From IMG/VR virus record IMGVR_UViG_2681813268_000003, positions 1 through 6,870 of that record: 6,870 nt of DNA; one strand, written 5' to 3'. Source of the stretch: a virus. Lineage: Duplodnaviria; Heunggongvirae; Uroviricota; Caudoviricetes. This document shows, piece after piece, positions 1 to 6,870 of the stretch (position 1 is the stretch's first letter; each line of letters starts with the position of its first letter). The position numbers and the translations under genes are program-made. The notes beneath the pieces are model-generated. The model searched no databases. It had not been told where the DNA came from and saw nothing but the letters and a program-made list of their open reading frames with translations.

Positions 1-62
1 GGGTTACCCCCAAACGAATCGGAAAATCGATACTGGAAAAACTCTAACTCGGTGGCCAGTTT

Positions 63-565
63 TTGTTGACCACTTCAGTTACAAACGAGCGAGTAACAAA
101 AATACGCGAACTGAAACGAAAAGGTAACGCTGCCAGCGTTACACAAACGGATCAAAAAGCGTTACCAGAGGAAGAGGAAGAGGAAGAGGAAGAGGAAGAG
201 GAAGAGGAAGAGGAAGATCTAAATACTGATCTCCCCCTCGCCAAAAACGAGCGTCTAAAAAATTCGAGCCGGAGGCTATTGAGCTGCCCGATTGGTTGCC
301 GGAAACACTCTGGCATGAGTGGGTCCGGTTCAGACAGGCATTGCGAAAACCGATTCGAACGGAGCAGGGCGCTAACGGGGCGATACGGGAACTGGAAAAA
401 TTCCGTCAGCAGGGTTTTACACCTGAGCAGGTGATTCGACACAGCATCGCCAATGAATACCAGGGCCTGTTCGCGCCGAAAGGTGTTCGGCCTGAGACGT
501 TGCTCCGACAGGTTAACACCGTCTCGTTGCCGGACAGTGCGATCCCGCCAGGCTTCAGGGGGTAA
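63..565 (+). pseudogene. DnaT-like primosomal/replication protein, disrupted. The C-terminal domain (about 230..565, frame 2) is intact; the upstream part including the poly-Glu tract is in frame 3, and all three frames have stops before nt 127
   Basis: Frame-2 translation ends ...VNTVSLPDSAIPPGFRG, which matches my recollection of the E. coli DnaT C-terminus (...VNTVSEPDSQIPPGFRG). Gene sits immediately 5' of a DnaC-like gene (stop 563-565, next ATG 572), as in dnaT-dnaC. Frames 3 and 2 are joined by a 1-nt shift at the C5 run 233-237; adding one C gives a continuous ORF 63..565. Only TTG starts are available at 63/66. Confidence 0.5.
168..215 (+). repeat. (GAGGAA)x8 perfect hexanucleotide repeat encoding 16 consecutive Glu in frame 3
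   Basis: Direct reading of the sequence: 48 nt of uninterrupted GAG GAA codons. Confidence 0.95.
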
Positions 566-571
566 CGGACC

Positions 572-1318
572 ATGAAAAATATTGCGACAGGCGGCGTTCT
601 GGAACGCATCCGCCGACTGACCCCGCCACATGTAACCGCCCCATTCAGAACGGTAGCGGAGTGGCGCGAGTGGCAACTTGCTGAAGGCCAGAAACGTAGC
701 GAGGAGATCAACCGCCTGAATCGCCAGTTGCGGGTGGAAAAAATTCTGAATCGCTCAGGCATCCAGCCGTTGCACCGTAAATGCTCGTTTGCGAATTACC
801 AGGTGCAGAACGACGGCCAGCGATACGCGTTAAGCCAGGCGAAATCCATCGCCGATGAACTGATGACCGGGTGTACAAATTTTGCGTTCAGCGGAAAACC
901 TGGTACCGGGAAGAATCACTTAGCGGCAGCTATCGGGAATCGCCTGCTGAAAGACGGTCAGACAGTGATTGTGGTTACCGTGGCTGATGTTATGAGCGCC
1001 CTGCACGCCAGCTATGACGACGGGCAGTCAGGCGAAAAATTTTTGCGGGAGCTGTGCGAAGTGGATCTGCTGGTTCTTGATGAAATTGGCATTCAGCGCG
1101 AGACGAAAAACGAGCAGGTGGTGCTGCACCAGATTGTTGATCGCCGGACAGCGTCGATGCGCAGCGTGGGGATGCTGACAAACCTGAACTATGAGGTGAT
1201 GAAAACATTGCTCGGCGAGCGGGTGATGGATCGCATGGTCATGAACGGCGGGCGCTGGGTGAATTTTAACTGGGAGAGCTGGCGTCCGAATGTTAGCCAT
1301 TCGAGGGTTGTTAAGTAG
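572..1318 (+). CDS. DnaC-like replicative helicase loader (AAA+ ATPase)
   Basis: 248-aa ORF with Walker A FSGKPGTGKNHLAAAIG and Walker B DLLVLDEIG. Sequence closely resembles E. coli DnaC as I recall it (GKPGTGKNHLAAAI..., LLGERVMDRM...). Starts 7 nt after the DnaT-like stop. Confidence 0.9.
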   Translation: MKNIATGGVLERIRRLTPPHVTAPFRTVAEWREWQLAEGQKRSEEINRLNRQLRVEKILNRSGIQPLHRKCSFANYQVQNDGQRYALSQAKSIADELMTGCTNFAFSGKPGTGKNHLAAAIGNRLLKDGQTVIVVTVADVMSALHASYDDGQSGEKFLRELCEVDLLVLDEIGIQRETKNEQVVLHQIVDRRTASMRSVGMLTNLNYEVMKTLLGERVMDRMVMNGGRWVNFNWESWRPNVSHSRVVK

Positions 1319-1332
1319 TTTCAGGAGGATTT

Positions 1333-1755
1333 ATGGCGAAACCTTTTACTCCCGAACAGCGGGAAGAACTGAAGACGCGAATTGTGGAACTCGTGCATCA
1401 GGACGGTCGGGTCACGATTCGGCAGTTGTCAGATGAAACAGGTATCAGTCGTGCGTCTGTCGGTCGCTTATGCATAGAACTGGTCGCAAGTGGTGATGTA
1501 TATAATTCTGGCTACGGCTTATTCCCGTCTGAACAGGCTCGCAAGGACTGGCAAAGCGCCCGCAAAAAACTCTCGAGAGTAAAGGTGAGGAAACCGGTTG
1601 TTGTTGATCCGGACCTTATCTGGTCATTACCTGACGGAGAAATACGCCGCTACGACAGGCGCCTGAATATAATCTGTCGCGAGTGCCGGAAGAGCGAAGC
1701 TATGCAGCGTGTACTGGCTTTCTATCAGGGTAATTTTCAGGAGGCGATACTGTGA
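1333..1755 (+). CDS. Small putative DNA-binding protein with N-terminal winged-helix/HTH-like segment; function unknown
   Basis: 140-aa ORF with strong SD AGGAGG (1323-1328) before ATG 1333. N-terminus (...VTIRQLSDETGISRASVGRL...) looks like an HTH; basic C-terminus with CRECRK. No family confidently recognised. Confidence 0.7.
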   Translation: MAKPFTPEQREELKTRIVELVHQDGRVTIRQLSDETGISRASVGRLCIELVASGDVYNSGYGLFPSEQARKDWQSARKKLSRVKVRKPVVVDPDLIWSLPDGEIRRYDRRLNIICRECRKSEAMQRVLAFYQGNFQEAIL

Positions 1756-1812
1756 ATGAAATTAGCTATCAGGCTTCAATTACCGCTGGCATTCGCATCA
1801 AAGGAGAGGAGC

Positions 1813-2169
1813 ATGGAAATAAAACCAGAAGATGAGTTAAGCAATATTGTTTTATTTCCGGTAAAAGAGGATAACCCTCGTAATCAGGTTAATTTTCTTT
1901 ATGAGCCATCGGAAAGACCATATTGCCATCACGCCTCTGTACGGGTTGACGAAAAAGAGCGTCAGGTCCGCTGTAAAATCTGCGGTGCGGTTGTGGAGCC
2001 GTTTGACTGGATGCTCTCTGTGGCAAAAAGAGAAACCAGACTGGCAGATGATGTAAGGCTATTGCGCCAGGAGGAACAGGAAAGGCGGAGAAATATAGAA
2101 AAGCTGATACAGATTGAGCGTAACGCGAAAGCGCGGATACGCAGGGCGACAAAATCCAGAACTGAATAA
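1813..2169 (+). CDS. Zinc-ribbon-like protein with C-terminal basic coiled-coil; function unknown. Alternative start at ATG 1756
   Basis: ORF 1756..2169; internal ATG 1813 has a strong SD (AAGGAGAGGAG 1801-1811). Cys/His motif YCHH...CKICG followed by a charged helical tail (RLADDVRLLRQEEQERRRNIEKLIQIERNAKARIRR). Confidence 0.65.
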   Translation: MEIKPEDELSNIVLFPVKEDNPRNQVNFLYEPSERPYCHHASVRVDEKERQVRCKICGAVVEPFDWMLSVAKRETRLADDVRLLRQEEQERRRNIEKLIQIERNAKARIRRATKSRTE

Positions 2170-2255
2170 TTAAATTTAGCACTGTTAAAAATTTAATCCT
2201 TAACCGGAGGGATTTCTGCACCCTCAAATCATCAGGAGACCACCCGAAAGGGCGG
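1942..2255 (+). repeat. Copy A of a 314-bp near-exact direct repeat (zinc-ribbon gene 3' half plus downstream intergenic); partner at 4185..4498
   Basis: Base-by-base comparison: identical except 2242 a vs 4485 g. A further 13 bp (1928-1940) match 4166-4178 just before the N gap. Confidence 0.95.
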
Positions 2256-2316
2256 GGAGCAGTCACACATCTGTTTCCGATAGCCCCGTTCTAATGCTAC
2301 ACTCTTTGATATTTTT

Positions 2317-3003
2317 ATGACCCCAATAAACATATTTATGACAGTTGCTGATTTCAAACGGCCCAAATTGGAGCTCCCAAACGGGGCAAACAAACTACTA
2401 CTGCACTCTTGCTGTGCTCCATGTTCCGGTGAGGTGATGGAGGCGCTTCAGGCCTCGGGAATCGACTACACCATCTTTTTCTACAACCCGAACATTCATC
2501 CTCAGAAAGAGTATTTAATTCGTAAGGATGAGAATATTCGCTTTGCTGAACAACACGGCGTGCCGTTTATTGATGCTGATTACGACACAGACAACTGGTT
2601 TGAACGAGCCAAAGGAATGGAATGGGAGCCCGAACGAGGGATCCGTTGCACCATGTGTTTTGACATGCGTTTTGAGCGGACAGCGCTGTACGCCGCTGAA
2701 AATGGTTTCAGTGTGATCAGCAGTTCACTGGGCATTTCACGCTGGAAAAATATGCAGCAGGTTAACGACTGTGGGCGGCGAGCCGTCGCGCATTATCCGG
2801 GCATGGTGTACTGGGATTATAACTGGCGCAAGCAGGGCGGCTCGTCCCGTATGATTGAAATCAGCAAGCGCGAAAAATTCTATCAGCAGGAATATTGTGG
2901 CTGTGTGTATTCTCTGCGCGATACCAATCTACACCGCAAATCTCAGGGACGCCCTCTTATCAAAATTGGTCAACTCCACTACGGTAAAGAAGAGAAGGAG
3001 TGA
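2317..3003 (+). CDS. queH: QueH-like protein (DUF208 family, putative B12-independent epoxyqueuosine reductase)
   Basis: 228-aa ORF with N-proximal [11 protein letters not shown] motif and additional conserved Cys (CTMCFD, EYCGCVY), which I recognise as DUF208/QueH hallmarks. No obvious SD; alternative start ATG 2338. Confidence 0.7.
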
Positions 3004-3024
3004 TTTTATGGGGCACCTTTCTGA

Positions 3025-3054
3025 TTGATTTCATATTGGCGAGGTAAGTAGAAT
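3025..3054 (+). promoter_or_regulatory. Putative sigma70 promoter of hok/mok mRNA copy 1 (TTGATT -18- TAGAAT)
   Basis: -35-like TTGATT 3025-3030 and -10-like TAGAAT 3049-3054; predicted start near 3060, just before the tac-like element. Confidence 0.4.
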
Positions 3055-3057
3055 GAC

Positions 3058-3072
3058 TGCGGGTGCTTGAGG
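3058..3072 (+). promoter_or_regulatory. tac-like 5' element of hok mRNA copy 1 (TGCGGGTGCTTGAGG), complementary to the fbi-like 3' element at 3443..3458
   Basis: 15 bp pair with 3443-3458 (CCTCAACGCACCCGCA) with one bulged C. Same 5'/3' fold-back architecture as described for plasmid R1 hok mRNA. Copy 2 equivalents at 6400-6414 and 6779-6794. Confidence 0.55.
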
Positions 3073-3104
3073 CTATCTGCTTCAGGCATGAACACCAAAA
3101 GGCA

Positions 3105-3182
3105 GATAGAGAAAAGCCCCAGTTAACATTACGCGTCCGGCAAGACGCTTAACATTAATCTGAGGCCAATTTCATGCTTTGC
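3105..3182 (-). ncRNA. Putative Sok-like antisense RNA of hok locus 1 (extent approximate)
   Basis: Inferred by analogy to hok/sok. Minus strand has -35-like TTGCCT (complement of 3212-3217) and weak -10-like TAACCT (complement of 3189-3194) with 17-nt spacing, pointing transcription antisense across the mok start (3174). 3' end not defined. Confidence 0.25.
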
Positions 3183-3386
3183 ACATGTAGGTTAGCCTCT
3201 TACATGCCGAAAGGCAAGGAGAAGCAGGCTATGAAGCAGCAAAAGGCGATGTTAATCGCCCTGATCGTCATCTGTTTAACCGTCATAGTGACGGCACTGG
3301 TAACGAGGAAAGACCTCTGTGAGGTACGAATCCGAACCGGCCAGACGGAGGTCGCTGTCTTCGTAGACTACGAATCCAGGAAGTAA
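3174..3386 (+). CDS. mok: Mok-like regulatory ORF, in frame with and containing hok (70 aa)
   Basis: ATG 3174, same frame as hok. Same in-frame arrangement as I recall for E. coli MokC/HokC. Confidence 0.5.
   Translation: MLCTCRLASYMPKGKEKQAMKQQKAMLIALIVICLTVIVTALVTRKDLCEVRIRTGQTEVAVFVDYESRK
3231..3386 (+). CDS. hok: Hok/Gef-family type I toxin (51 aa, single TM helix)
   Basis: MKQQKAMLIALIVICLTVIVTALVTRKDLCEVRIRTGQTEVAVFVDYESRK is near-identical to recalled HokD/HokC sequences. SD AAGGAG 3215-3220 before ATG 3231. Confidence 0.9.
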   Translation: MKQQKAMLIALIVICLTVIVTALVTRKDLCEVRIRTGQTEVAVFVDYESRK

Positions 3387-3463
3387 GAGTGACCGGGCGG
3401 GGAGCTGATCCCATCCCCGCCCACCTCTGATGTGTCAGGCATCCTCAACGCACCCGCACTTAA

Positions 3464-3506
3464 CCCGCCCATCGCTGTGATCTCTCAGCGTTTCGGCGGG
3501 TTTTTT
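3464..3506 (+). terminator. Rho-independent terminator / 3' end of hok mRNA copy 1
   Basis: Two-tier hairpin: CCCGCC 3464-3469 pairs GGCGGG 3495-3500; inner CGCTG 3473-3477 pairs CAGCG 3486-3490; followed by T6 3501-3506. Confidence 0.7.
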
Positions 3507-3526
3507 GTTGTTTATTTCCGGTGAAT

Positions 3527-3554
3527 TTGATTCGCGCACCTTCGCAGATAGAAT
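3527..3554 (+). promoter_or_regulatory. Putative sigma70 promoter (TTGATT -16- TAGAAT) upstream of the 95-aa ORF
   Basis: TTGATT 3527-3532 and TAGAAT 3549-3554, located just after the hok1 terminator. Confidence 0.4.
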
Positions 3555-3635
3555 CGACTCACTTAAGTAGCGCGCAGGGAGAAGAGGGATGGACCCCGAA
3601 CAGGGGAGAGCTATTTATCTGGAAGGATTCTGAAG

Positions 3636-3923
3636 ATGAAAATCGAAGAATTGCGTGAAATTTTTAGTGAAAATGGCCTCTATGCTGTGCGCGTTGAGAA
3701 TGGAGCGATTGTCAGCCATTGCCGCATTAGATGTTTGCAATCTCAACAAAGGAAGAGCGGTGCTGTGTTATTTTATTTTTGTAATGGACTTCTGACGGAC
3801 GGTTTTATTTTGCGTGAGGACGAATTTGTCACATCATTACGGGTTTTGAAAGAGATTGGTTTTAAGGCTGGTTTTCTGCTTTTGCTGAAGAATAAACTCA
3901 TCTACAATCTTGAGCAGGATTGA
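3636..3923 (+). CDS. Hypothetical protein (95 aa)
   Basis: ORF with SD GGAAGGA 3621-3627, 8 nt before ATG 3636. No recognised motif. Confidence 0.55.
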   Translation: MKIEELREIFSENGLYAVRVENGAIVSHCRIRCLQSQQRKSGAVLFYFCNGLLTDGFILREDEFVTSLRVLKEIGFKAGFLLLLKNKLIYNLEQD

Positions 3924-3961
3924 ACTCCTGCTGTGTAACACCGTGCCACCGGAGAAAGCCG

Positions 3962-4178
3962 ATGGCACATATACAACTGGTCAAACAAACCTCTTCCGGA
4001 TTACTTCTCCCGGCGACGCCGGAGAGTTGCGATTTTCTGCATCAAATCAAAATAGGTGAGTGGATACACGCAGACTTTAAGCGTGTGTGTAACTACGCAT
4101 TCCACAAGCGTTTTTTCAAACTCCTGCAACTGGGTTTCGATTACTGGACTCCGGTCGGTGGGGCGATCACGCCTCTGT
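3962..4178 (+). CDS. Phage nin-region protein, 3'-truncated at the N gap (possibly DUF1367-like, tentative)
   Basis: ATG 3962 preceded by GGAGA 3951-3955. Translation MAHIQLVKQTSSGLLLPATPESCDFLHQIKIGEWIHADFKRVCNYAFHKRFFKLLQLGFDYWTPVGG... runs into the N run at 4179. Family assignment is from memory only. Confidence 0.5.
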
Positions 4179-4184
4179 NNNNNN
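4179..4184. other. Run of 6 N: assembly/scaffold gap of unknown true length
   Basis: Literal nnnnnn in the sequence; flanks correspond to positions 1940 and 1942 of the upstream repeat copy. Confidence 0.95.
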
Positions 4185-4412
4185 CGGGTTGACGAAAAAG
4201 AGCGTCAGGTCCGCTGTAAAATCTGCGGTGCGGTTGTGGAGCCGTTTGACTGGATGCTCTCTGTGGCAAAAAGAGAAACCAGACTGGCAGATGATGTAAG
4301 GCTATTGCGCCAGGAGGAACAGGAAAGGCGGAGAAATATAGAAAAGCTGATACAGATTGAGCGTAACGCGAAAGCGCGGATACGCAGGGCGACAAAATCC
4401 AGAACTGAATAA
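4185..4412 (+). CDS. 5'-truncated second copy of the zinc-ribbon/coiled-coil protein (3' 228 nt identical to 1942..2169)
   Basis: Frame-3 translation from the gap edge (RVDEKERQVRCKICGAVVEPFDWML...ATKSRTE) is identical to the C-terminus of the 1813..2169 product. Confidence 0.5.
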   Translation, partial: RVDEKERQVRCKICGAVVEPFDWMLSVAKRETRLADDVRLLRQEEQERRRNIEKLIQIERNAKARIRRATKSRTE

Positions 4413-4498
4413 TTAAATTTAGCACTGTTAAAAATTTAATCCTTAACCGGAGGGATTTCTGCACCCTCAAATCATCAGGAGACCGCCCGAAAGGGCGG
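4185..4498 (+). repeat. Copy B of the 314-bp direct repeat (partner 1942..2255)
   Basis: See copy A. Ends in a GAAA-loop hairpin (4482-4499) that is perfect here but mismatched in copy A. Confidence 0.95.
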
Positions 4499-4504
4499 TA
4501 ATGA

Positions 4505-4723
4505 ATGGTTACATTATTTAGAAAAAAATATCCGCGAAAGAGTAGAACAACAGAATTCCTGTTTCTCATTCTGTTTATCGTGTTGATGACACCGATATCC
4601 CCGCTAATTTTTGTCTGGATAATCGGAAAAATAATTGAGCCAGTTATTGAATTGTATAACGACGTGGTATGGGCGTCATTCAACACACTGCACAATAAAA
4701 TTAATCCGTATAAGGAAAGCTGA
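4505..4723 (+). CDS. Small hydrophobic (membrane) protein, 72 aa, AT-rich
   Basis: ORF with hydrophobic core FLFLILFIVLMTPISPLIFVWIIGKII. Stop 4721-4723 is 1 nt before the HNH start 4725. Markedly AT-rich compared with its neighbours. Weak SD. Confidence 0.4.
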   Translation: MVTLFRKKYPRKSRTTEFLFLILFIVLMTPISPLIFVWIIGKIIEPVIELYNDVVWASFNTLHNKINPYKES

Positions 4724-4724
4724 T

Positions 4725-5090
4725 ATGGCACTGACGAAAAAACAACGTGCAGAACTGCGCATGAAGTTCGGTGGTCGCTGCGCTTATTGCGGCTGCGAAC
4801 TTGGCGAAAAGTGGCATGCAGACCATGTAAAACCGGTCATTCGTTTTGATGGAAATATGCTTCACCAGGAACGTGACGATATATCCAACATGGTACCAGC
4901 ATGCCACCCATGCAATCTGCACAAGCATTGCAGTAGCCTGGAAGATTATCGACGAATTATCAGTGATGGTCGTCGTGAATTCCTTGCGTCCGGGAAAGGC
5001 AAAGCGCTGGTTCGTATGGGATTGGTTGAAATGAAATCTGACCCGGTTGTGTTCTGGTTTGAAAAATATCAAGAAGGGGCTACGGCATGA
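4725..5090 (+). CDS. HNH endonuclease-domain protein (121 aa)
   Basis: SD TAAGGAAAG before ATG 4725. HNH signature CAYCGCEL...WHADHVKPV...NMVPACHPCNLHKH. The tool ORF from 4635 has no RBS support. Confidence 0.85.
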   Translation: MALTKKQRAELRMKFGGRCAYCGCELGEKWHADHVKPVIRFDGNMLHQERDDISNMVPACHPCNLHKHCSSLEDYRRIISDGRREFLASGKGKALVRMGLVEMKSDPVVFWFEKYQEGATA

Positions 5091-5752
5091 CCACTATTAC
5101 CAAAGAGCGACTGCAATGGCTGGCTAACATTTCTGGCCGCGATGATATTGACGATATAGACGGCGGTGAAATTCGTGAACTGGCGCTTATCGCTCTGGCA
5201 TCACTGGAAGCAGAGCCTGTAGCGGAATGCATTGTTGAAGATGGGGGCATGTGTATTGACGGGTTCGGTGAGTATGTGGGTCACTCGCTGCCTGATGGAA
5301 TGCATGAGCTTTATGCTGCCCCGCGAATGCGACAACCTGATGGATGGAAAGCCGTAGCTGTAGCGTGGAAGGTGACGTTTACTCAAGTTGACCAGGAATC
5401 TAATACGTTCACTGCTATATATTTTGACAAAGCGGAAGTTGAGTGTTGGGTACGACTGCATAAAGCATGTGATTTTCGGGCAGATATAACACCGCTTTAC
5501 GCAGCGCCGGCAGTGCCGGTTGCAGTAAACGACGACATGGCTTACGCATTCCATCACGCACTGTCAGATTCATCGCTTGGCTCTGATGAAATCGAAGAAA
5601 TTAAAACCGGTTTGCGTGCTGCCTTTGCCAACGTCACTATCCAACCAGAGCCGATAGTGCCGGATGAAATCGGGCCAAACGATAGTAATACGTTTGATTA
5701 TGTTGATGGCTGGAACGCCTGCCGCGCTGCCATGCTTAAGGGAGATAAATAA
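5087..5752 (+). CDS. Hypothetical protein (221 aa), acidic N-terminus, two LYAAP-containing segments
   Basis: ATG 5087 overlaps HNH stop (ATGA 5087-5090). Coding-like composition. No recognised family. Confidence 0.7.
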   Translation: MTTITKERLQWLANISGRDDIDDIDGGEIRELALIALASLEAEPVAECIVEDGGMCIDGFGEYVGHSLPDGMHELYAAPRMRQPDGWKAVAVAWKVTFTQVDQESNTFTAIYFDKAEVECWVRLHKACDFRADITPLYAAPAVPVAVNDDMAYAFHHALSDSSLGSDEIEEIKTGLRAAFANVTIQPEPIVPDEIGPNDSNTFDYVDGWNACRAAMLKGDK

Positions 5753-6117
5753 TGATTAATCGAACCAAACTGGAGCACATTCTCGAATATGCCAGGCAGC
5801 AGAAATGTATTGGGCAACTTTGTAAAATTCCACCAGGAGATATGGTTGAAATCGTGGAAATGGCCATGCGTAAGGCTGGCAACTCTCCGGTAGCTCCGGC
5901 TGGCTGGATAAGCTGTAGTGATGCAGTTCCTGCTGAATATTGCGATGTGATTCTTCTCGATGATCTCGGGAATGTATTCCCCGGTTCCTGGGATAAGGTT
6001 TTTTGCCCCACTCGTGGCGGGAATAAGATGGCTTTTGTGGACAAAGACGGCGTTGAAGTAGAGAGCTCAACTCACTGGATGCCGCTACCGGAACCACCGC
6101 AGGAGGTGAATCAATGA
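5752..6117 (+). CDS. DUF551-like phage protein (121 aa)
   Basis: ATG 5752 overlaps previous stop (TAATG). C-terminal ...THWMPLPEPPQE and WISCSDAVPAEY... resemble the DUF551 pattern found in lambdoid nin regions (from memory). Confidence 0.7.
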   Translation: MINRTKLEHILEYARQQKCIGQLCKIPPGDMVEIVEMAMRKAGNSPVAPAGWISCSDAVPAEYCDVILLDDLGNVFPGSWDKVFCPTRGGNKMAFVDKDGVEVESSTHWMPLPEPPQEVNQ

Positions 6118-6197
6118 CCTGGCCTGAGGCATTCACCACGGTAGGAATTGCGATGGCGGTGGCGCTGGTGGTGTATTCGATTTGCCGTTGGGGTTAA
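6114..6197 (+). CDS. Putative 27-aa hydrophobic micropeptide (MTWPEAFTTVGIAMAVALVVYSICRWG)
   Basis: Below the ORF-track length cutoff. ATG 6114 overlaps DUF551 stop (ATGA), strong SD AGGAGG 6101-6106 at 7-nt spacing, stops 7 nt before a strong terminator. Confidence 0.4.
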   Translation: MTWPEAFTTVGIAMAVALVVYSICRWG

Positions 6198-6207
6198 CAA
6201 ACAAAAA

Positions 6208-6233
6208 CCCCGGATTGATGGTCCGGGGTTTTT
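6208..6233 (+). terminator. Rho-independent terminator closing the HNH-containing operon
   Basis: CCCCGGA 6208-6214 pairs TCCGGGG 6222-6228, 7-nt loop, then T5 6229-6233. Confidence 0.75.
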
Positions 6234-6445
6234 GAAGGAAACAAAACAGAAACAGCAATTGCCGTTACCTGTTGTTACCATGGCAAGTAAACGTATCTCA
6301 GGCGAGCGCATTGCGCCGTTCTGACGCAGATAAACTAGCCTGGATAGATGGTGCTGGCAATAAAAAATAGCGTTTTCTTATCGGTGTCGGTAAGATTGCT
6401 GCGGGTGCTTGAGGCTGTCTGCCTCGGGTATGTCACTGTAAGGCA

Positions 6446-6523
6446 GACAGAGAAAAGCCCCAGTTAACATTACGCGTCCTGCAAGACGCTTAACATTAAT
6501 CTGAGGCCCAATCTATGTCTCAC
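6446..6523 (-). ncRNA. Putative Sok-like antisense RNA of hok locus 2 (extent approximate)
   Basis: By analogy only; the same minus-strand hexamers as locus 1 are conserved (complement of AGGCAA and AGGTTA). Confidence 0.2.
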
Positions 6524-6727
6524 AAATGTAGGTTAGCCTCTTACGTGCCGAAAGGCAAGGAGAAGCAGGCTATGAAGCAGCAAAAGGCGATGTTAATCGC
6601 CCTGATCGTCATCTGTTTAACCGTCATTGTGACGGCACTGGTAACGAGGAAAGACCTCTGCGAGGTACGAATCCGAATCGGCCAGACGGAGGTCGCTGTT
6701 TTCGTAGACTACGAATCTAGAGAGTAA
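6515..6727 (+). CDS. mok: Mok-like regulatory ORF, in frame with and containing hok copy 2 (70 aa)
   Basis: ATG 6515, same architecture as locus 1. N-terminus differs (MSHKCRLASYV vs MLCTCRLASYM). Confidence 0.5.
   Translation: MSHKCRLASYVPKGKEKQAMKQQKAMLIALIVICLTVIVTALVTRKDLCEVRIRIGQTEVAVFVDYESRE
6572..6727 (+). CDS. hok: Hok/Gef-family type I toxin, second paralog (51 aa)
   Basis: MKQQKAMLIALIVICLTVIVTALVTRKDLCEVRIRIGQTEVAVFVDYESRE. Differs from copy 1 at T35I and the C-terminal residue. SD AAGGAG before ATG 6572. Confidence 0.9.
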   Translation: MKQQKAMLIALIVICLTVIVTALVTRKDLCEVRIRIGQTEVAVFVDYESRE

Positions 6728-6799
6728 GAGTGACCAGGCGGGAGAGTAATCTCCCGCCACCTTTGATGTGTCAGGCATCCTCAACGCACCCGCACTTAA

Positions 6800-6819
6800 C
6801 CCGTTTCGGCGGTTTTTTT
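6800..6819 (+). terminator. Degenerate terminator of hok copy 2 (T7 tract with minimal stem)
   Basis: Relative to copy 1, about 25 nt of the hairpin are missing; CCG/CGG with a 3-nt loop remains, followed by T7 6813-6819. Confidence 0.3.
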
Positions 6820-6870
6820 GGTAATGACTCCAACTTATTGATAGTGTTTTATGTTCAGATAATGCCCGAT

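Follow-up and report, generated by a model that had tools for sequence, protein, structure and literature searches.

The question raised by this locus is why a replication gene lying in front of an intact helicase-loader gene cannot be read in a single frame. It occupies the beginning of a 6,870-nucleotide (nt) stretch of viral DNA (positions 1 to 6,870 of the IMG/VR record IMGVR_UViG_2681813268_000003), referred to here as the window. An initial annotation, made from the sequence alone, described a DnaT-like gene with an uninterrupted (GAGGAA)8 tract and a change of reading frame at a run of five cytosines, and left three explanations side by side: a sequencing error at the homopolymer, a genuine pseudogene in a defective prophage, or a phase-variable switch. 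It is the pseudogene that comparison with related loci bears out, with an IS911 truncation and a 10-base-pair (bp) deletion as its causes. Positions 78-565 very probably represent what is left, the 3' 60%, of a replication-initiator gene of the ydaU type from a Rac-like lambdoid prophage, a gene that is dead by at least these two independent lesions and carries an in-frame GAGGAA variable-number tandem repeat (VNTR).

In the window, frame 3 is open from 48 to 431 and frame 2 from 230 to the TAA stop codon, and the gene moves from the one to the other somewhere within 230-431. The CCCCC run lies at 233-237, and the reading frame does change there, as first described; the lesion, however, is a loss of 10 bp and not of one base. 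In the alignment, three relatives (loci L001, L002 and L003) read GATCTCCCCCTAAATCCCCCTCGCC where the window reads GATCTCCCCCTCGCC: intact relatives carry TCCCCCTAAATCCCCCT, and the window retains one TCCCCCT. The missing bases correspond to one TCCCCCT copy plus the AAA spacer, and their loss shifts the frame by -1. Putting the 10 bp back restores ...DLPLNPPRQKRASKKFEPE..., the reading found in the relatives. One extra C, added at 237, also gives an uninterrupted open reading frame (ORF) over 78-565, as had been pointed out, because -10 + 1 is a multiple of three. Among 80 protein-anchored loci, a sample of close relatives only (96-100% identity), TCCCCCTAAATCCCCCT or a substituted form of it is kept in all 80 intact relatives and the deletion occurs in none.

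The same scar is present in six IMG/VR contigs (L034, L061, L064, L065, L088 and L091) and in six NCBI loci (L129, L131, L132, L133, L134 and L135). The deletion allele is thus found in at least 12 other contigs, which come from Shigella sonnei where the organism is named; L131 is CP010829.1, a 4.82-Mb record. Outside the repeat, the six IMG/VR loci are 95.1-99.95% identical to the window, five of them at 99.0-99.95% and L091 at 95%. The 89-amino-acid product is listed as 'hypothetical protein FORC11_0720 [Shigella sonnei]', and the members of its cluster are mostly S. sonnei. The allele is absent from all 578 complete E. coli genomes in which the module is present and the scar segment is matched, every listed alignment beginning at the base after the scar, and no place in complete E. 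coli genomes covers at least 80% of the scar segment used as query. The host of the prophage is most likely Shigella sonnei or a close relative.

Further damage is apparent within the deletion lineage. An IS3-family element, which we take to be IS600, lies near the 5' end of the gene (6422-7578 in L034, 7461-8617 in L061), and a run of A8 or A9 stands where intact genes have A6 (8873-8880 in L061), giving a further frameshift. The S. sonnei-type lineage is a case of stepwise decay of a cryptic prophage. Since the deletion lineage occurs without the IS911 junction, the deletion is presumably older than the IS911 lesion.

The IS911 lesion is recorded in the first nucleotides of the window. Nt 1-80 show no difference from the annotated IS911 end in phage Sf6, with divergence after nt 80 in the alignment. 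In a search of phage records, the first 78-86 nt are 97.5-98.8% identical to IS911 in phages Sf6, SfII and SEN22, and the IS911 end at 4963-5040 of L061 is 100% identical to window 1-78. The terminal inverted repeat, ...CACTTCA (5'-TGAAGTG... on the opposite strand), is the same as in known copies, and the flanks of the Sf6 and L061 elements depart from the window after it, at about nt 78-81. On the other side, ydaU-type homology starts at nt 78 in Rac-type phage records and in all 651 E. coli genomes that match most of window 1-700. The junction reads CACTTCA followed directly by GTTACAAAC. The GTT at 78-80 is common by chance to the Sf6 flank and to the start of ydaU homology, and because it also opens the latter the boundary of the insertion sequence is uncertain by at most 3 nt; the IS911 end is placed at nt 77. 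Compared with the copies in Sf6 and the S. sonnei-type contigs, with which it shares the terminal 77-80 nt, the element in the window comprises the last 77 nt only, the transposase genes and the other junction lying outside.

Relative to the intact reference L002 (E. coli FDAARGOS_943, gene at 1180-1962, 783 nt, 260 amino acids), nt 78 corresponds to nt 322 of the gene, codon 108 of 260, with 321 nt preceding it. Everything 5' of nt 78, from the promoter and start codon of the initiator gene to its codon 107, has given way to IS911, and no start codon is therefore recognisable. This explains the unclear start recorded in the initial annotation, which had also correctly noted stops in all three frames before nt 127 (the last at 112-114 in frame 1, 125-127 in frame 2 and 45-47 in frame 3). 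An exact look-up of the chimeric ORF 63-434 in a gene index gave no match. The possibility that the IS911 end contributes to a hybrid promoter directed outward (TTGACC at 66-71) was considered and rejected, since there is no acceptable -10 element at the proper distance and a promoter scan found none.

In L061, a same-orientation IS911 ends 3.86 kb upstream of the equivalent of window nt 78. An IS911-adjacent deletion (about 3.9 kb relative to L061) could have given rise to the arrangement in the window, a fresh insertion being equally possible. Such a deletion would have taken out the 5' end of ydaU together with the IS600-type element and the ydaT, cro-like and repressor genes. The window itself begins exactly 77 nt inside the IS911 end; one may speculate that this fits a contig that a k=77 de Bruijn assembly broke off at a repeat, or that the window was just cut there.

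The ydaU-type identity of the remnant extends over the 651 E. coli genomes and phage Rac. The intact protein of L002 matches phrog_2509, 'replication initiation protein', over positions 1-277 of 277 (E 1.9e-87), whereas the frame-2 segment of the window covers only profile positions 180-277 (E 1e-11), short of the full length; the window holds a fragment of a phrog_2509 family member, not a functional member. The C-terminal half also matches phrog_6451, 'primosomal protein' (7e-36), and phrog_678, 'replication initiation O-like' (1e-23). A Pfam scan of the intact relative gave no family at E 0.01, lambda O included; the description of YdaU as a DUF1376 protein did not hold in this case. The label DnaT-like, used at the outset, is weak, the match being confined to the last 19 residues, a C-terminal tail of the form RDVNxxSxPDxxIPPGFRG that corresponds to DnaT residues 161-179. 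It does not hold for the protein as a whole: the NCBIfam DnaT equivalog PRK02854 scores 17.3 bits against a cut-off of 201 bits, over profile positions 161-179 only, and in a profile search PDB DnaT chains match the tail alone (E 0.16-0.5). The initiator does not belong to the DnaT family by any curated threshold, and its best family is phrog_2509.

The gene order in relatives is repressor, cro, ydaT, ydaU, ydaV. The remnant likewise occupies the position upstream of the loader in a lambdoid early-right operon, ydaV starting 7 nt past the initiator stop codon. An AlphaFold (AF2) model of a relative, built from 29 homologues, comprises a helical N-terminal domain, modelled with confidence and including a beta-hairpin (residues 10-95), a region of predicted local distance difference test (pLDDT) values below 50 that holds a basic stretch, the poly-Glu and the PLNPP motif (residues 96-160), and a confident three-helix C-terminal domain (residues 176-225). 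In this model the poly-Glu is predicted to sit in a disordered linker of about 65 residues between the N- and C-terminal domains.

The repeat is exactly as first described, its 16 Glu being read in frame 3 with no mismatch, and its proposed nature as a slippage-prone, in-frame length variant agrees with the variation among relatives. In a pattern-anchored sample of 127 related loci with a common repeat flank (1.24 Mb in total), two units are found in 18 loci, three in 67, four in 33 and five in 5; long arrays are confined to one locus with six units, one with seven and two with eight. The 80 protein-anchored loci carry arrays of 1-4 units or arrays broken by a Lys codon. The number of units therefore ranges from 2 to 8 across the 127 loci and is not invariant, as the opposite outcome would have had it, and within the near-identical Shigella lineage values of 3, 5, 6, 7 and 8 occur. 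For the deletion lineage the individual counts are 3, 3, 5, 6, 7 and 8 in the IMG/VR loci and 3, 3, 3, 6 and 6 in the NCBI loci, with one further locus at 38 or more. Copy number varies and the flanks are conserved among close genomes, which is the behavior of a VNTR. Because the unit is 6 nt long, slippage alters the length and never the frame.

The exceptional array belongs to L133 (2436-2663; GCA_001252575.1, CXDQ01000265.1), in which at least 38 uninterrupted GAGGAA units stand directly against a run of N. Many S. sonnei draft contigs begin a few dozen bases downstream of the array; such contig starts are expected from an unresolvable or multi-copy repeat in short-read assemblies.

Intact genes carry 2-5 units, and the longest Glu run in the 120 best protein clusters is 10. 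Arrays of at least six units all lie in broken genes, namely those of the S. sonnei lineage, the window and E. coli 2013C-4974, the last with an independent C4 frameshift and the annotation 'frameshifted'. This distribution suggests that slippage is frequent, that purifying selection caps the array length in working genes, and that the cap is lifted after inactivation. The array also marks a joint in the protein. In P0120, P0013 and other 376-amino-acid forms, and among the 127 loci, the first 146 residues of the initiator (ending ...KALPEEEE) are followed by several unrelated C-terminal modules, one of which carries the Pfam DnaT domain PF17948. The breakpoint coincides exactly with the poly-Glu, and the repeat is therefore a mosaic boundary.

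Against this background, it is very improbable that the C5 run reflects a sequencing or assembly error and that the real genome has C6 and an intact frame. The continuous frame opened by one added C is in line with such an error, as are the homopolymer frameshifts that occur in some relatives (C4 in the first run of L001, annotated 'frameshifted'; a shifted C-terminal reading near C5, A6 and A5 runs in protein clusters P0100, P0083 and P0094). The gap to the intact genes is nevertheless 10 bp and not 1, and a homopolymer sequencing error is excluded by the recurrence of the same allele in the other contigs, CP010829.1 included. A C6-repaired version would moreover be without the conserved Leu-Asn-Pro of the PLNPP motif, and codons 1-107 would be missing regardless. 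A phase-variable on/off switch of a replication gene, made up of the tract and the C run, can scarcely be maintained either. The repeat number does change fast between near-identical genomes, but a 6-nt unit leaves the frame unchanged and the C run barely varies in length: C4 occurs in one of the 127 pattern-anchored loci and in none of the 80 protein-anchored ones, C5 being otherwise essentially the rule. The 10-bp deletion is not revertible by slippage, the first 107 codons are lost, and the window contains neither the 5' end nor the promoter of the gene, with no sigma-70-like site in 1-700. These are not the properties of a phase-variable contingency locus.

The remaining C-terminal ORF deserves separate consideration, since frame 2 is open for 111 codons and ends in the normal stop 7 nt short of the ydaV ATG, ydaV is intact, and the 89-amino-acid product is exactly conserved in several S. 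sonnei assemblies. Expression of this ORF (89-111 amino acids, with the three-helix domain and the DnaT-like tail) by IS911 read-through, and a role together with ydaV, are nonetheless improbable: there is no promoter-like site, the sole start codon is TTG, and the lineage is decaying progressively (IS600-type insertion, A-run shift, deletion, IS911). The conservation itself concerns sequences too alike for a test of purifying selection.

A gene inactivated at both points remains the preferred reading. Its history would begin with a slipped-strand deletion between short direct repeats, removing TCCCCCT and AAA from TCCCCCTAAATCCCCCT and shifting the frame by -1 within the linker. IS911 would then have come to abut codon 108, with the loss from that side of the winged-helix N-terminal domain and of two of the three palindromes described below. 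The repeat, probably held at 2-5 units in functional copies, would drift to 6, 7, 8 and perhaps far more once the gene is inactivated. Several points weigh against this account. The window is a scaffold with an N gap, and the IS911/ydaU junction is known from one assembly; as a 35-mer it has 0 matches in IMG/VR and 0 in the Joint Genome Institute (JGI) metagenomes, and it was not found in complete E. coli genomes. The sequence 5' of nt 1 lies outside the window, and either an insertion or a deletion by IS911 would fit what the window shows. The link between long arrays and broken genes comes from few independent lineages, S. sonnei and E. coli 2013C-4974, and the array of at least 38 units in L133 may be a large expansion or an artefact of gap filling or assembly.

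A different kind of conservation is found at the DNA level. The 127 related loci contain 321 perfect GTAACGC-N5-GCGTTAC palindromes, and all but one of them occur at one of three set distances from the repeat, about -435, -240 and -35 nt; these 320 carry 39 different spacers. In L002 they are located at about 1147, 1339 and 1546, the first in the non-coding gap 33 nt before the ATG; in the window the palindrome at 124-142 is the sole surviving copy of the three. The arms are invariant in Escherichia, Erwinia, Pantoea, Rahnella, Mixta and Samsonia. With a 23-mer from the repeat flank, a scan of species-representative genomes found 5 loci in all, none of them in Escherichia, which indicates the wide distribution of the module. 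In the -240 copy, which lies outside every search pattern, the synonymous positions of the arms are fixed (AAC in 52 of 52, GTT in 75 of 75), and the gene's other Asn and Val codons vary; some homologues have extra NAxxVT-coding copies as insertions. The GCGTTAC half-site next to the array belonged to the search pattern, so that its presence in all loci carries no independent weight. On the coding strand, purines make up 74% of region 78-232; its GC content is 0.44 vs 0.55-0.57 in the flanks, and it contains 3 GATC sites vs 0.38 expected. Several candidate initiator-binding sites conserved as DNA are thus present in or next to the gene, as would be expected of a lambda-type origin embedded in the initiator gene. 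To judge from the sequences, the palindrome pattern points to a candidate protein-binding site conserved at the DNA level, and its most economical reading would be the initiator's own predicted binding site, an origin and/or operator inside its gene, by analogy with lambda.

In phage lambda, ori-lambda lies inside the O gene, and the next gene encodes the helicase-loading partner. By this analogy, 78-232 might be mainly a cis-acting prophage origin or operator inside the initiator gene, composed of the palindrome, the half-site, the purine-only (GAGGAA)n and a short A/T-rich GATC segment, with the poly-Glu as a by-product. This is a serious possibility, somewhat short of an even chance, and it is compatible with a doubly inactivated gene, not exclusive of it. 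The invariance of the arms in six genera despite 39 spacers, the non-coding location of one copy, the fixed synonymous positions, the additional NAxxVT insertions and the compositional bias of the region (purine, GC, GATC) argue for it. The sites are, however, about 200 bp apart and do not form a tight iteron array, and the composition could reflect a Lys/Glu/Asn-rich linker. With the initiator and two of its three palindromes missing here, any origin or operator in the window is probably non-functional.

A wider proposal can be advanced more tentatively still. ydaU-type initiators, which are widespread in Enterobacterales prophages, may bear their own origin or operator, with palindromes before the gene, in the winged-helix loop and in the linker; the repeat would then be both a module-swap boundary and a spacer of variable length separating the binding site from the A/T-rich GATC segment, and the window would be a dead origin remnant with the last palindrome, the half-site and an expanded spacer. 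The literature ascribes to Rac an active origin, oriJ, and no description of the structure of that origin was found in the searchable literature on oriJ and ydaU.

The closest known system is the Rac ydaU-ydaV module (Escherichia phage Rac, MN652886, with its depositor's labels), which is 91% identical in DNA over 78-697. It shares the order repressor, cro-like, ydaT, ydaU, ydaV, the domain layout, the poly-Glu linker and the PLNPP motif; the window differs in lacking codons 1-107 (IS911), in the 10-bp deletion, and in having 8 repeat units vs 3. In function and layout the ydaU-ydaV pair resembles lambda O and P, as well as the dnaT-dnaC operon. The layout is that of lambda O, an initiator in which a DNA-binding domain at the N-terminus is followed by a flexible linker and by a C-terminal domain that recruits the helicase-loading partner; in both, dyad-symmetric sites lie in the coding sequence near the linker, and the C-terminal part of the ydaU-type protein matches phrog_678. 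The three palindromes, about 200 bp apart and one of them upstream of the gene, differ from the four tandem iterons of lambda. With the dnaT-dnaC operon the pair shares the tail motif and the location of the gene directly upstream of a DnaC-type loader. The GAGGAA array, finally, is comparable to the loci used in multiple-locus VNTR analysis (MLVA), in that a short, perfect tandem repeat varies in copy number among isolates that are otherwise near-identical; unlike them, it lies in a prophage pseudogene of which a genome has more than one related copy, and this would make typing more difficult. The features of the locus are collected in Table 1.

Table 1. Features at the left end of the window (coordinates in nt of the window; a dot marks a feature without strand)
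Feature	Position	Strand	Support
Right terminal 77 nt of IS911 (IS3 family)	1..77	+	ends ...TTGACCACTTCA
ydaU-type replication-initiator remnant, codon 108 to stop, pseudogene in two frames	78..565	+	89-98% DNA identity
Perfect palindrome GTAACGC-TGCCA-GCGTTAC, candidate initiator-binding site (iteron or operator)	124..142	.	third conserved copy
Half-site GCGTTAC, 2 nt upstream of the array	159..165	+	found in every locus examined (part of the search pattern)
(GAGGAA)8 variable-number tandem repeat, Glu16, predicted disordered linker	168..215	+	100% matches, TRF score 102
Frame-2 segment: C-terminal three-helix domain (predicted) and DnaT-like tail (...VNTVSLPDSAIPPGFRG)	230..565	+	TAA at 563-565
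Single remaining TCCCCCT, scar of the 10-bp deletion (TCCCCCTAAA) between 7-bp direct repeats	232..238	+	alignment of L001, L002, L003
Intact ydaV, DnaC-like helicase-loader gene	572..1318	+	PRK12377 8e-154; DnaC equivalog 1.7e-91; Pfam IstB_IS21

The rest of the window is of composite appearance. A gap of 6 N lies at 4179-4184, and directly after it come 300 nt (4185-4484) that repeat 1942-2241 at 100% identity. On its left side the window agrees with L061 at 99.95%, and on its right side with L034 10808-13493 at 100%. It therefore has the look of two related prophage segments scaffolded together, whose adjacency across the gap is uncertain. The window also contains two toxin-antitoxin loci of the hok/sok type, with about 93% identity to each other (sok at 3061-3236 and 6403-6577, hok-like ORFs at 3174-3386 and 6515-6727); both sok loci match Rfam RF01794 at 117-118 bits, against a cut-off of 59 bits. 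Between 2317 and 3003 lies a prophage-borne homologue of QueH, epoxyqueuosine reductase (Pfam PF02677, E 1.9e-65), a tRNA-modification cargo gene. Further cargo ORFs lie at 1756-2169, 4725-5090, 5087-5752 and 5752-6117; among them are a protein with a zinc-ribbon-like motif (phrog_1621), an HNH endonuclease, a function-unassigned ORF and a DUF551 protein.

The finding itself is biologically minor: it adds one more decaying prophage gene riddled with insertion sequences, as is typical of Shigella, and this decay needs neither a sequencing error nor a regulatory switch as its explanation. Apparent homopolymer frameshifts should be compared with relatives before a one-base fix is proposed, as here the lesion proved to be a 10-bp repeat-mediated deletion. 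The GAGGAA array is hypervariable among near-identical S. sonnei, which is relevant to assembly and possibly to fine-scale typing. If the reading of the palindromes proves true, they could show where the as yet undefined origin or operator lies in a prophage replication module that is very common.

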